This document shows positions 47,171 to 49,710 of a stretch of DNA of 64,000 nt, in pieces. The notes beneath the pieces were generated by a model. The model was not told the origin of the DNA. It ran no database searches and worked only from the letters and a program-made list of their open reading frames with translations. How positions within the stretch are numbered: the stretch's first letter is position 1; the number at the start of each line of letters is the position of its first letter. The stretch is from contig CAXXWS020000002.1 in assembly GCA_963665325.3 (NCBI GenBank), forward strand, positions 288,001 to 352,000, in the 5' to 3' direction. A program made the position numbers and the translations under genes. This stretch comes from Alphaproteobacteria bacterium (lineage in GTDB: Bacteria; Pseudomonadota; Alphaproteobacteria; Bin95).

Positions 47171-48202
47171 TCAGCGCGTTTCCTTGCGGAGCATCGACAG
47201 AACGCGGTCCGCAAGCAAGTCGATGCTGCGCAGCACGAGCCGCTGGTCCATGCCGAGCCACTGGATGCGGGTGACGATGCGGTTGCAGCCGGTCGCCTCC
47301 GAGAGCGAGAGCAGTTCGTCCGCGACCTCTTCCGGCGAGCCCATCACGACCCGCCCGGCGAGCAGTTCGTCGAGGTCGGGCTCGTCCTTGCCGACCCCGC
47401 CAATGGTCCGGAACAGGCCCCACTGTCCAAAGACCCTGTAGCTGGCTTCCAGGAACGGACCGGCCTCGCGGACTGCCGTTTCCCGGTCCGGCGCGACCAC
47501 GATATTGCGCAGCATCGGGAAGCGGGCGGGCATGGGTTTGCCGAGCGCATCGAGCGCCTCGCGGAAGCATTCCGCCTGGCGCCTGACGACATTGCCCACC
47601 AGGTGCGAGGAGGCGACCCAGCTGTCGCCGAGCCTCGTGTCCGCCAGGCGGGCCGCCCGCTCGACCGCCGCTTCGACGCTGCCGCCGAACCACATCGGCG
47701 GCCGCGGCCGGCGTACGGGCCTGAGCGCGAGAGTCAGGTCGTTCGCGGTGAAATGCCGGCCGGCGAAGTTGACGGACCCCTCCGTGAACAGCCGCCGGAT
47801 CAGATCGACTCCTTCCAGGTAGCGTCCGATCCGGCGCCCGAAATCCAGCCCCATCAACTCGAACTCGTCCCGCTGCCAGCCGGGCGCCACGCCGAGCGTG
47901 AACCTGCCGCCGGAAACCGCATCGAGCAACGCTGCCTGCTCGGCAATCTGGAACGGATGGTAGAGCGGCAGGATCAGCATGCAGGTGGCGATCTGCATGC
48001 CCTCGGCTTCGGGTGCCAGATGCAGCAGCGTTTCCAGCGGCGGGAACCAGGCGGTATCGCCGTAGGAAAGGTGGTTGCCGATGGCCACGCCCTCGAAGCC
48101 GCCCTCGCGCGCGAGGCGGAGCTGCTCGACATGCTCGGCCATCTTCTCGCCCATATGCGCGTCCGGGCGATGTTCGGCGCTGATGAATAGATGCAGGTCC
48201 AT
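47171..48202 (-). CDS. LLM class flavin-dependent oxidoreductase
   Basis: LPLYHP..IAEQAALLD..SGGRF.LGV..G, P.W.GG, GSPEEV. Confidence 0.9.
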   Translation of the reverse strand: MDLHLFISAEHRPDAHMGEKMAEHVEQLRLAREGGFEGVAIGNHLSYGDTAWFPPLETLLHLAPEAEGMQIATCMLILPLYHPFQIAEQAALLDAVSGGRFTLGVAPGWQRDEFELMGLDFGRRIGRYLEGVDLIRRLFTEGSVNFAGRHFTANDLTLALRPVRRPRPPMWFGGSVEAAVERAARLADTRLGDSWVASSHLVGNVVRRQAECFREALDALGKPMPARFPMLRNIVVAPDRETAVREAGPFLEASYRVFGQWGLFRTIGGVGKDEPDLDELLAGRVVMGSPEEVADELLSLSEATGCNRIVTRIQWLGMDQRLVLRSIDLLADRVLSMLRKETR

Positions 48203-48274
48203 GGCGCACCAGATTGGCCCAAAGCGGGGCCGGACGCTACACCTGCGACGCCGCGGCGGAAGGCGGCAGGGTCA

Positions 48275-48427
48275 TTACGGCGCGACGGGGTCCCGAACGA
48301 AATCGGGCGCCTTGCGGCGCCCCTTGCGAGTATAGGCCTTGCGGTTCCGGACCCGTTGCGGGCGCAACGTGCGCAGCGCGCGTGCCATCGGATTGCGCCG
48401 TTTCGGCGGCGGCTTCCGCTTGCGCAT
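48275..48427 (-). CDS. small basic protein, ArfA-like (50 aa)
   Basis: MRKRKPPPKRRNPMARALRTLRPQRVRNRKAYTRKGRRKAPDFVRDPVAP; visual similarity to the ArfA core; weak RBS. Confidence 0.6.
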   Translation of the reverse strand: MRKRKPPPKRRNPMARALRTLRPQRVRNRKAYTRKGRRKAPDFVRDPVAP

Positions 48428-48459
48428 GGTCCCGGGCCCCGGCCTTGCAGTGCGATAGA

Positions 48460-48534
48460 TGGTGGGCGCGGCTGGGATTGAACCAGCGACCCCTGCCGTG
48501 TGAAGACAGTGCTCTCCCGCTGAGCTACGCGCCC
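48460..48534 (-). tRNA. tRNA-Val(CAC)
   Basis: GGGCGCGTAGCTCAGCGGGAGAGCA..CTGTC-TTCACAC-GGCAG..GGTTCAATCC..CGCGCCCACCA; 75 nt with encoded CCA. Confidence 0.96.
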
Positions 48535-48570
48535 GGAGGTCGGATCGTCTAGGCAGAGCGCGTCTGCCTG

Positions 48571-49710
48571 TCAAGCGCCGGCCCAGGGGTCGTCGAGGTC
48601 CAGGAGCGCGTTGTCGCCGCCGAGGCCGGGCGCGGGCGCGCGCACCGCCGGGCGCCGGCCGTCGAAGGAAATCGGCAGCGCCAGCGCCTGCATGCCTTCC
48701 CGCTCGGGCACGTCCACGATCATGTCGAGCGCCTGAACCTGCGGCTCCTCCAACGCTTCGACCATATTGTTGACCGGAGACGCAGGCACGCCTGCGGCCT
48801 CGAAGACTTCCATCCATTCTCGCACGGTGCCTTCGCTGAGGAACGCCTGCATATCCCTGACGATCTCCTCCCGCCGTTCCATGCGGGCGGCATTGCCTTC
48901 GAACGCCGCGCTCTCGGCCCAGTCCGCCCGCCCGAGCGCCCGCCCGAGGCGCTTGAAGAGCCGGTCGGTCGCAGCAGTAATCAGCAACCGCCCGTCCGCC
49001 GCGTCGAAGGCCTCGAACACGACCACGCGGGGGCTGCCGGTCGGATGGCGCACGGGCCGGAGCCCCGTTGCCATGTGCGAGACGAACTGCGTGGTCAGCA
49101 GGAACATGGCCGTCTCGAGCAGCGAGGTGTTGACCACGACGCCCTTCCCCGTCTTCTCCCGCTGGCGCAATCCCGCAAGTGCGCCGAGGGCCGTCCAGAG
49201 CCCGGTGCCCAGATCGCAAACCGCCGCCCCCAACCGCATCGGGTCGCCGTCGGGGTCGCCGGTATTGTCCATCAGGCCGGAGAACGCCTGGAAGAGGACC
49301 TCGAAGCCGGGGTCGAGGCGCTTCGGCCCCTTGTGGCCGAACGCGCCCATGTCGCAATAGACGAGGCGCGGATTCTCGCGGAGCAGCGTTTCCGGGTCCA
49401 GCCCGAGCTTTGCCGTGACGCCTGGGCGGAGATTCTGGACGAACACATCCGCGCCGCGCACCAGCTTCATCAGGCCCGCGCGGCCCTCTTCCCGCGTGAG
49501 GTCGAGCGACACCGACCGCTTGGACCGGTTGACGCCGTGGAAGGTGGGCGCCGCGCCGAACCAGACCGGCGGCGTCCAGCGGCGCGACTCATCGCCTTCC
49601 GGACGCTCGACCTTGATGACGTCGGCCCCGAGCTCCGCCAGCACCTGCCCGACGACCGGGCCGGCGATGATCTGCGCGAGCTCGACGACGCGCACTCCCT
49701 TGAGCGGCAT
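48571..49710 (-). CDS. CaiB/BaiF family III CoA-transferase
   Basis: PLKGVRVVE, GADVIKVE, NRSKRS, NLRPG, VCDLGTG. Confidence 0.92.
   Translation of the reverse strand: MPLKGVRVVELAQIIAGPVVGQVLAELGADVIKVERPEGDESRRWTPPVWFGAAPTFHGVNRSKRSVSLDLTREEGRAGLMKLVRGADVFVQNLRPGVTAKLGLDPETLLRENPRLVYCDMGAFGHKGPKRLDPGFEVLFQAFSGLMDNTGDPDGDPMRLGAAVCDLGTGLWTALGALAGLRQREKTGKGVVVNTSLLETAMFLLTTQFVSHMATGLRPVRHPTGSPRVVVFEAFDAADGRLLITAATDRLFKRLGRALGRADWAESAAFEGNAARMERREEIVRDMQAFLSEGTVREWMEVFEAAGVPASPVNNMVEALEEPQVQALDMIVDVPEREGMQALALPISFDGRRPAVRAPAPGLGGDNALLDLDDPWAGA

Follow-up and report, generated by a model that had tools for sequence, protein, structure and literature searches.

A small basic protein with a terminator-like hairpin inside its gene: a candidate ArfA-like ribosome-rescue factor behind tRNA-Val in an alphaproteobacterium

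Introduction

Could a very basic protein of 50 residues, encoded just behind a tRNA gene in an alphaproteobacterium, be a ribosome-rescue factor of the ArfA kind, and could the hairpin that lies within its own reading frame be what governs its expression? The question was raised by a first-pass annotation of a 64,000-nucleotide stretch of DNA, called the window from here on. The proposal is an unexpected one for this class. The accessible portions of the published surveys place ArfA in the Gammaproteobacteria and some Betaproteobacteria, and BrfA in a few Bacillus (PMC11633108, PMC8012679). A 2021 review, in the text of it that is available, limits ArfA to some of the beta- and gammaproteobacteria (PMC8012679), and the available part of a 2024 nhmmer survey gives arfA in 0 of 2,376 alphaproteobacterial genomes (PMC11633108). 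From the comparisons described below, the reading that the small protein would be an ArfA-like rescue factor made from non-stop mRNA is given a probability of about 0.5.

The locus

The small-protein gene lies on the minus strand at 48275 to 48427 of the window and consists of 50 codons and a TAA stop. Read from 48427 to 48275, it translates to MRKRKPPPKRRNPMARALRTLRPQRVRNRKAYTRKGRRKAPDFVRDPVAP, a very basic protein of 50 residues. Its ATG is separated by 32 nt from the 3' end of a tRNA-Val(CAC) gene (48460 to 48534, minus strand), which was called by ARAGORN and scores 63.8 bits with the Rfam tRNA model; the Rfam search returned this tRNA and nothing else. The first-pass annotation had put the ORF about 32 nt behind the tRNA CCA, and that is where it is. 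It had also remarked that the ORF has no entry of its own in the ORF track. This is so because the frame was absorbed into a spurious 360-aa ORF that begins with TTG (48275 to 49357) and crosses the tRNA, and in the mechanical list the small frame appears only as the tail of that ORF. On the upstream side of the tRNA is the end of a CoA-transferase family III gene (48571 to 49710, minus strand; Pfam 395 bits), and 72 nt past the TAA of the small ORF is a gene for a luciferase-like monooxygenase (47171 to 48202).

Reading the sequence upstream of the tRNA gives a possible promoter, TTGACA-17 nt-TAGACG, at 48546 to 48574 on the minus strand, in overlap with the CoA-transferase stop codon. A promoter scan found 0 promoters and did not call this one. 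It has a perfect TTGACA, is conserved across the genus loci that have an intact tRNA, and is possibly the promoter of a unit made up of the tRNA and the small gene, which are probably co-transcribed. In public RNA runs, where at most 0.20 of the sampled words were recovered, the contigs cover either the tRNA alone, from a variety of organisms, or, in a single run, the downstream gene as far as position 48258. The small ORF lies outside all of them, which, since contigs do not show ends, counts neither for nor against the proposed transcript.

Evidence that the small ORF is a gene

Homologues were sought by six-frame search in 40 relatives and in the genome itself. Of the 17 genomes in the genus, which consists of uncultured Alphaproteobacteria, 15 have the small protein, at E<1e-15 and with 77-98% identity; the two that gave no match are fragmentary assemblies of 250 and 730 contigs. 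The 24 relatives outside the genus gave no convincing match in the same six-frame search. Among 5.8 billion proteins, a search by words yielded no more than 14 close relatives, and a related-locus search with the alignment of the genus proteins (A1) returned only MAGs of the same genus. The concern that there might be no conserved homologues is nevertheless removed by the 15 genus genomes, and by 53 profile relatives that are described below.

The pattern of change among these homologues is that of a protein-coding gene. In the 15 aligned genus loci, variable sites are distributed over the three codon positions as 14/15/29 (44 codons), and synonymous changes are found at the invariant residues K9, N12, L21, R22, Q24, R27, K30, Y32 and T33. 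Nei-Gojobori-type counts were made over the 13 loci with 51 codons, leaving out L001, L014 and L015 for their different lengths. In codons 1-35 the pN/pS is 0.31 (pS 0.166). In codons 36-44, which hold the hairpin and its U-rich tail, it is 0.52 and pS is at its lowest (0.107), and in codons 45-51 it rises to 1.01 (pS 0.242). Protein-level selection thus reaches as far as the end of the hairpin and U-tract and no further. The small ORF is a real gene, with codons 1-35 under purifying selection and the codons after the hairpin neutral; this neutral tail, codons 45-50 and the stop, occupies 48275 to 48295 on the minus strand.

The tRNA is a less constant companion. It stands intact directly upstream in 11 of the 15 genus loci, and the other four (L004, L006, L011 and L013) keep only its 3' part, so that the small gene persists there without the tRNA promoter. 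At one of these loci, L006, a gene for a tyrosine (phage-type) integrase (positions 1820-2851 of that locus, minus strand) adjoins the tRNA-Val remnant. The remnants, together with this integrase, show that tRNA-Val(CAC) is an integration site for a mobile element in the genus. The tRNA link is specific to the genus, and 26 of the 28 distant alphaproteobacterial loci of the wider protein family have no tRNA within about 1.5 kb. Linkage to a tRNA as a trait of the family was considered and rejected, as the locus includes any tRNA at all in 2 of the 28, about 1 kb or more away.

The protein, DUF7230 and ArfA

Like ArfA (PF03889; YhdL in E. coli), the product is a small, basic protein. Among the 15 genus proteins 23 alignment columns are invariant, and the conserved core, residues 9-40 (KRRNPMARALRTLRPQRVRNRKAYTRKGRRKA; 48308 to 48403, minus strand), is common to a DUF7230-like family and can be aligned to ArfA. 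The likeness is carried by three motifs in the same order, N-x-x-A-x-x-L, hydrophobic-R-(P)-Q-R-V and Y-x-R-K-G-basic-basic. The differences are several. The small protein fails the ArfA model, has a gap of three residues in place of KGKGS and has RR where ArfA has KH; its N-terminus is rich in proline and arginine (MRKRKPPPKRRNP); and its gene is alphaproteobacterial and follows a tRNA. That KGKGS is absent had been stated correctly in the first-pass annotation. The motif is invariant in 25 aligned ArfA sequences, and the small protein has NRK-AYTRKG instead.

The likeness to the E. coli ArfA core had been seen by eye, and BLASTP recovers it as 9 of 19 identities over QRV..Y.RKG, with an E-value of 0.059 (single comparison) that makes the match weak if taken alone. 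The PF03889 model, which has a gathering score of 25.5 bits, gave no match at E<=10 for the protein or anywhere in its genome. The best Pfam match is DUF7230 (PF23876) with 16.8 bits and an E-value of 0.0078, aligning residues 8-40 with profile positions 1-34; the six-frame search of the genome gave 15.1 bits. With a gathering score of 27, the small protein is at best an outlying member of DUF7230. NCBIfam and PHROGs held no match for the small protein itself, and the ESM Atlas gave unnamed clusters only, one of them with DUF7230 on 20% of its members at low recognition.

The wider family was collected by searching the profile of the 15 genus proteins (A1) against 1.84 billion representatives. 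This gave 53 proteins of 34-119 aa at E<=1e-3, two of them at <=1e-10, which have one collinear pattern in common, (K/R)RNP-hydrophobic-A-x-x-L-R ... (R/K)P(Q/K)-x-V ... K-x-Y-(T/S)-R-K-G-(R/K). DUF7230 matches 36 of the 53 and ArfA matches five (E<=0.01). KG.G(A/S)Y is found in four of them, exactly at the position of KGKGSY in ArfA, and the two of these four that were looked up bear the IMG name 'stalled ribosome alternative rescue factor ArfA'. Many other members end in Y-x-R-(K/H)-x-K-H, as ArfA does. Two members, P0020 and P0053, match the phage families phrog_6310, phrog_20887 and phrog_18092, for which no function is described, so some phages may carry relatives of the small protein.

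The 53-member alignment (A3) was compared by hhalign with an ArfA alignment (A2) made from 25 of 30 ArfA loci after near-duplicates had been dropped. The probability was 80% (E 1.3e-5), with residues 10-39 of the small protein on ArfA positions 10-44, a gap of two residues and a gap of three at KGK. When the four KGxG members were taken out it was 56% (E 1.1e-4). Reversed sequences as controls gave 3.1% and 30 column shuffles at most 0.2%, which is far below the score of the family, and the likeness of the family to ArfA is therefore not one of composition alone, as had been feared for short basic proteins. The genus profile (A1) alone gave no alignment with ArfA, at a probability of 0.5%. The comparison with ArfA that the first-pass annotation had called for thus gives a mixed result, with an alignment for the family and none for the PF03889 model and the genus profile. 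On the evidence of these profiles, the ArfA link runs through the wider family and not through the genus proteins alone. The best explanation of the alignments is that the small protein belongs to a DUF7230-like family that would be a distant, KGKGS-less branch of the ArfA superfamily.

The contact that ArfA makes with its release factor can be placed on this alignment. According to the available text of the ArfT preprint, ArfA binds RF2 through residues 15-31, with F25 in a hydrophobic pocket (10.1101/465609). In the hhalign comparison the RF2-binding region corresponds to A-L-R-T-L-R-P-Q-R-V of the small protein, where, as a matter of speculation, the invariant L21 or a neighbour could be the candidate equivalent of F25. 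A predicted complex of the genus RF2 (A4) with residues 1-44 of the small protein (A3) had a score of 0.02, which gives no verdict either way.

Distribution in the Alphaproteobacteria

With the ArfA model, a phylum-wide sample of 401 genomes gave matches in 36, all from classes other than that of the window. The family profile A3, in 401 genomes sampled across the class, found 37 from 29 genera. Among the 28 family loci from outside the genus, three are above the Pfam ArfA cut-off, namely L087 (30.4 bits), L090 (27.9 bits) and L092 (32.4 bits), from the alphaproteobacterial genomes G702, G565 and G526 respectively, and a fourth, L068, is narrowly below it (25.1 vs 25.5 bits). L084 is above the cut-off of DUF7230 with 32.3 bits. 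L090 matches the ArfA and DUF7230 models both and has a classic terminator inside its frame. DUF7230 proper is found in only two of the 401 genomes of the phylum sample, neither of which is alphaproteobacterial.

The hairpin inside the frame

The perfect 7-bp hairpin GGGCGCC-GCAA-GGCGCCC that had been noted at the YxRKG motif, ahead of the stop, is present with its U-rich tail. It was called by a terminator scan at 48305 to 48322 on the minus strand, where it forms codons 36-41 (G R R K A P). The stem has seven GC pairs around a loop of 4 nt (dG -15.8 kcal/mol), begins 12 nt past the Y32 codon and leaves 27 nt up to the stop. With its tail, GATTTCGTTC, it is the sole terminator-like site called on both strands of 47900-48900 (one found, 0.4 expected from shuffles). 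The U-rich part, GAUUUCGUUC, covers 48295 to 48304 on the minus strand, that is, codons 42-44 and the first base of codon 45, and is interrupted and imperfect, with five U in the 8-nt window. The site has what is expected of an intrinsic terminator in sequence: a GC-rich stem, a short loop and a U-rich tract 0-2 nt from the stem. Dinucleotide shuffles of the stretch from Y to the stop produced such a site in one case of 200 and, in a second test, one of 50. The fold of the whole region (201 nt) is no better than that of shuffles (z 0.92), and the local hairpin alone stands out. A stop-less mRNA is predicted to end in the U-tail, which would place the end of its product near F43 or V44. Nor is the hairpin a mere tRNA terminator outside a gene, a possibility that the first-pass annotation had raised.

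Within the genus the stem is intact at 13 of the 15 loci, at one of them by way of a G-U pair that results from a C-to-T change. L012 and L013 have one stem mismatch each, and L013 has also lost the U-tract; four loci (L006, L012, L013 and L015) fall outside the terminator criteria. Synonymous variation in codons 36-41 is almost nil over the 15 loci, and the V44 codon GTT inside the U-tract is kept in 14 of them. No compensatory double change in the hairpin was found among the genus loci, and its conservation in the genus is therefore not fully separable from that of the peptide RKGRRKAP.

The wider family gives the stronger evidence, the hairpins of seven distant loci (L071, L076, L078, L084, L085, L088 and L090) being alike in position and unrelated in sequence. 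Their energies range from -12.5 to -26.2 kcal/mol; the distance from the Y codon to the hairpin is 4-29 nt, and 25-85 nt remain between the hairpin and the stop. At L128, a DUF7230 member from another class (45.4 bits), a classic terminator follows directly after KHKGRQ. An intragenic hairpin or terminator is thus a feature that the small gene has in common with members above the DUF7230 cut-off, L084 and L128. For counting, a site was defined by energy as a single hairpin of -8 kcal/mol or lower, followed by at least five T in 8 nt and ending before the stop, and the expected numbers came from 50 dinucleotide shuffles per locus; kin among the loci are not independent. Such a site is found at 11 of the 15 genus loci (0.62 expected), at six of the 28 distant alphaproteobacterial loci (1.64 expected) and at 13 of the 30 ArfA loci that served as a positive control (3.06 expected). 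An earlier scanner for perfect stems, which was too strict in that it missed large loops and internal mismatches, had given 0/28 for the alphaproteobacterial and 6/30 for the ArfA loci. The other 22 distant loci lack such a site ahead of the stop, and in many of them the frame simply closes 30-54 nt past the motif. The expectation that homologues would keep a hairpin before the stop is thereby borne out in part of the family, and the non-stop design, as it can be predicted from these sites, is recurrent in the family and not universal, which by the same measure is true of ArfA as well.

The position is also that of ArfA, where an in-frame hairpin or terminator comes shortly past Y-x-R-K; it begins at Y+12 here and at Y+4 to Y+9 in the Pseudomonas-like loci L059-L062. 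Among the ArfA loci L050, L051, L056, L058, L059 and L061, several have short tails that end in ...KAA, ...MAA, ...QAA or ...LLAA. Tails of this AA type resemble the C-terminus of the tmRNA tag and may be a degradation signal built into the full-length protein.

The failure of the ArfA model and the lack of KGKGS count against the first-pass idea of an alphaproteobacterial rescue factor under non-stop control as it was put, and the real gene, the ArfA-linked family and the hairpins that are kept count for it. Model failure, family link and kept hairpins, taken together, favour the wording that the gene would work like arfA over the wording that it is an ArfA, which would hold only at the level of the superfamily.

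Other rescue factors with short frames invite comparison, which for BrfA and ArfT was by description only, both being described as unrelated to ArfA in sequence. BrfA of B. subtilis is similar in its control, as a rho-independent terminator before the stop gives a non-stop mRNA that is subject to tmRNA (PMC8012679, in its accessible part). The available text on ArfT of F. tularensis describes a protein that resembles the small one in its length of about 40 aa and its basic C-terminal stretch but differs from it in having a KKGGSTNKK motif and no internal terminator (10.1101/465609). Burroughs and Aravind, in the accessible portion of their paper, place ArfT in a broad family with a charged alpha-helix that is often repeated, in one to eight copies (PMC6514570); the small protein shows no repeated charged helices. 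ArfT was rejected as a match on these points of the published description, so far as it is available: KKGGSTNKK, the repeated charged helices and the lack of a terminator.

Rescue machinery of the genus

The genome, which is 100% complete by marker genes, has a tmRNA with the tag ANDNEVALAA at positions 603515-603822 of contig G000:C4; ARAGORN marks this tmRNA with an asterisk. SmpB is present in the same genome, so that tmRNA and SmpB accompany the small gene as they accompany ArfA. Genes with an RF-1 domain are two only, RF1 and RF2, which have the PET and SPF motifs. All 17 genus genomes were without a match of the size of ArfB. Third matches of the release-factor type are explained in G002 by a split RF2 and in G008 by a second RF2-like gene. 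The latter, at G008:C3:5228095-5229030, is full-length and 69% identical to the main RF2.

Elsewhere ArfB is more common. ArfB-like matches occur in nine of the 24 other relatives, and in the class sample ArfB (NF006718, E<=1e-15) occurs in 126 of 401 genomes, a count in which G461 and G644, two genomes flagged as unpublished, are included; they are positive for ArfB and lack the family. Of the 37 genomes that carry the family, three have ArfB (G486, G699 and G702), as against 123 of the 364 without it. The family and ArfB thus rarely co-occur in the Alphaproteobacteria (odds ratio 0.17; Fisher p 7e-4, 0.004 in genomes at least 90% complete and 0.018 when counted roughly by genus), a relation that is suggestive only, since relatedness and the many small genomes confound it and the p-values overstate it.

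A proposed mode of expression and action

If the small protein is a rescue factor of this kind, its gene would be transcribed with, or from just behind, the tRNA-Val. Most transcripts would end at the in-frame hairpin and U-tract, at about 48296-48300, and would be mRNAs without a stop codon, on which ribosomes, having added about 43-45 residues, would come to a halt at the 3' end. As long as trans-translation is working, the peptide would be tagged and degraded by way of SmpB and the tmRNA with the tag ANDNEVALAA, both of which the genome has. When tmRNA runs short, a peptide of about 43-45 aa would accumulate, and its basic tail would bind the empty mRNA channel. The peptide would then recruit a class-I release factor, RF2 by analogy, for peptide release. 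As no ArfB was found in the genus, the small protein would be its only back-up rescue route.

Alternative explanations

The alternative that survives best, and that is judged rather unlikely, is a real gene with a different role, for example that of a ribosome- or nucleic-acid-binding DUF7230-like protein, in which case the hairpin would be the terminator of the tRNA-Val and small-gene unit, laid over dispensable 3' codons in a compact locus. Such a protein could well have no ArfA model match and no trace of the invariant KGKGS, but the ArfA profile link of its family exceeds the composition controls. No terminator-like site other than the hairpin lies between the tRNA and the monooxygenase gene downstream, which would suit a terminator of the unit; yet a terminator within a selected frame gives stop-less messages regardless of the role of the protein, and the position is occupied again, by terminators with unrelated sequences, in distant members as well as in true ArfA. 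This recurrence has its limit in the 22 of 28 distant members that have ordinary stops with no terminator ahead. As for the role itself, DUF7230 is a family without a described function, a full-text literature search for 'DUF7230' gave no paper that mentions it, and one family member has a weak match to Ribosomal_S21 (E 0.027); the scarcity of the family where ArfB is present speaks against this alternative.

It is still harder to believe, and is considered quite unlikely, that the protein is an ArfA-like factor made constitutively from full-length mRNA, as is reported for ArfT, with the stop codon in use and the hairpin acting as a 3' stabiliser or partial attenuator. There is a precedent for it in that ArfT is reported, in the available text of the preprint, as a rescue factor without non-stop control (10.1101/465609), and in many family members the motif is soon followed by a plain stop. 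In the genus the stop is at the same position (51 codons) in 13 of the 15 loci; it has shifted in the two most divergent ones, L014 and L015, and in both of them the hairpin has stayed in its place. The codons between hairpin and stop, which such a protein would use, are neutral (pN/pS 1.01). The U-tract is weak, as this explanation would have it, but its GTT codon has been kept in 14 of 15 loci.

Very improbable is a chance frame in the tRNA trailer whose conservation would be no more than that of an RNA or an att site, for although the ORF is directly behind a tRNA that serves as an integration site in relatives, high-GC DNA has many spurious ORFs and the named 51-aa cluster members in public records (MAGs labelled Alphaproteobacteria bacterium) are annotated only as 'hypothetical protein', the codon-position pattern of 14/15/29 and the pN/pS of 0.31 are those of coding selection, synonymous changes fall at invariant residues, and the 53 profile relatives have the same collinear motifs in unrelated genomes with no tRNA as a neighbour (26 of 28 loci).

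Significance

The reading of the small protein as an ArfA-like rescue factor made from non-stop mRNA would have a wider meaning, which is put forward tentatively. DUF7230-like proteins may be an unrecognised and widespread branch of the ArfA superfamily in which KGKGS is dispensable, and may act as a release-factor-dependent back-up in lineages without ArfB, among them many Alphaproteobacteria. In the genus studied here, tRNA processing would create the 5' end of the mRNA and the internal terminator its 3' end, so that RNA processing and termination would define the message on both sides, in place of a dedicated promoter and a stop codon.

How bacteria without ArfB back up trans-translation is a question that the surveys leave open in their accessible portions (PMC11633108, PMC8012679). 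If the reading is true, ArfA-type rescue would reach the Alphaproteobacteria, where ArfA has been reported absent, and DUF7230, a Pfam family without known function, would gain a function together with its outliers. The KGKGS loop would not be needed for the design. An intragenic terminator would then also become a signature by which rescue factors that are too short or too divergent for homology searches could be sought.
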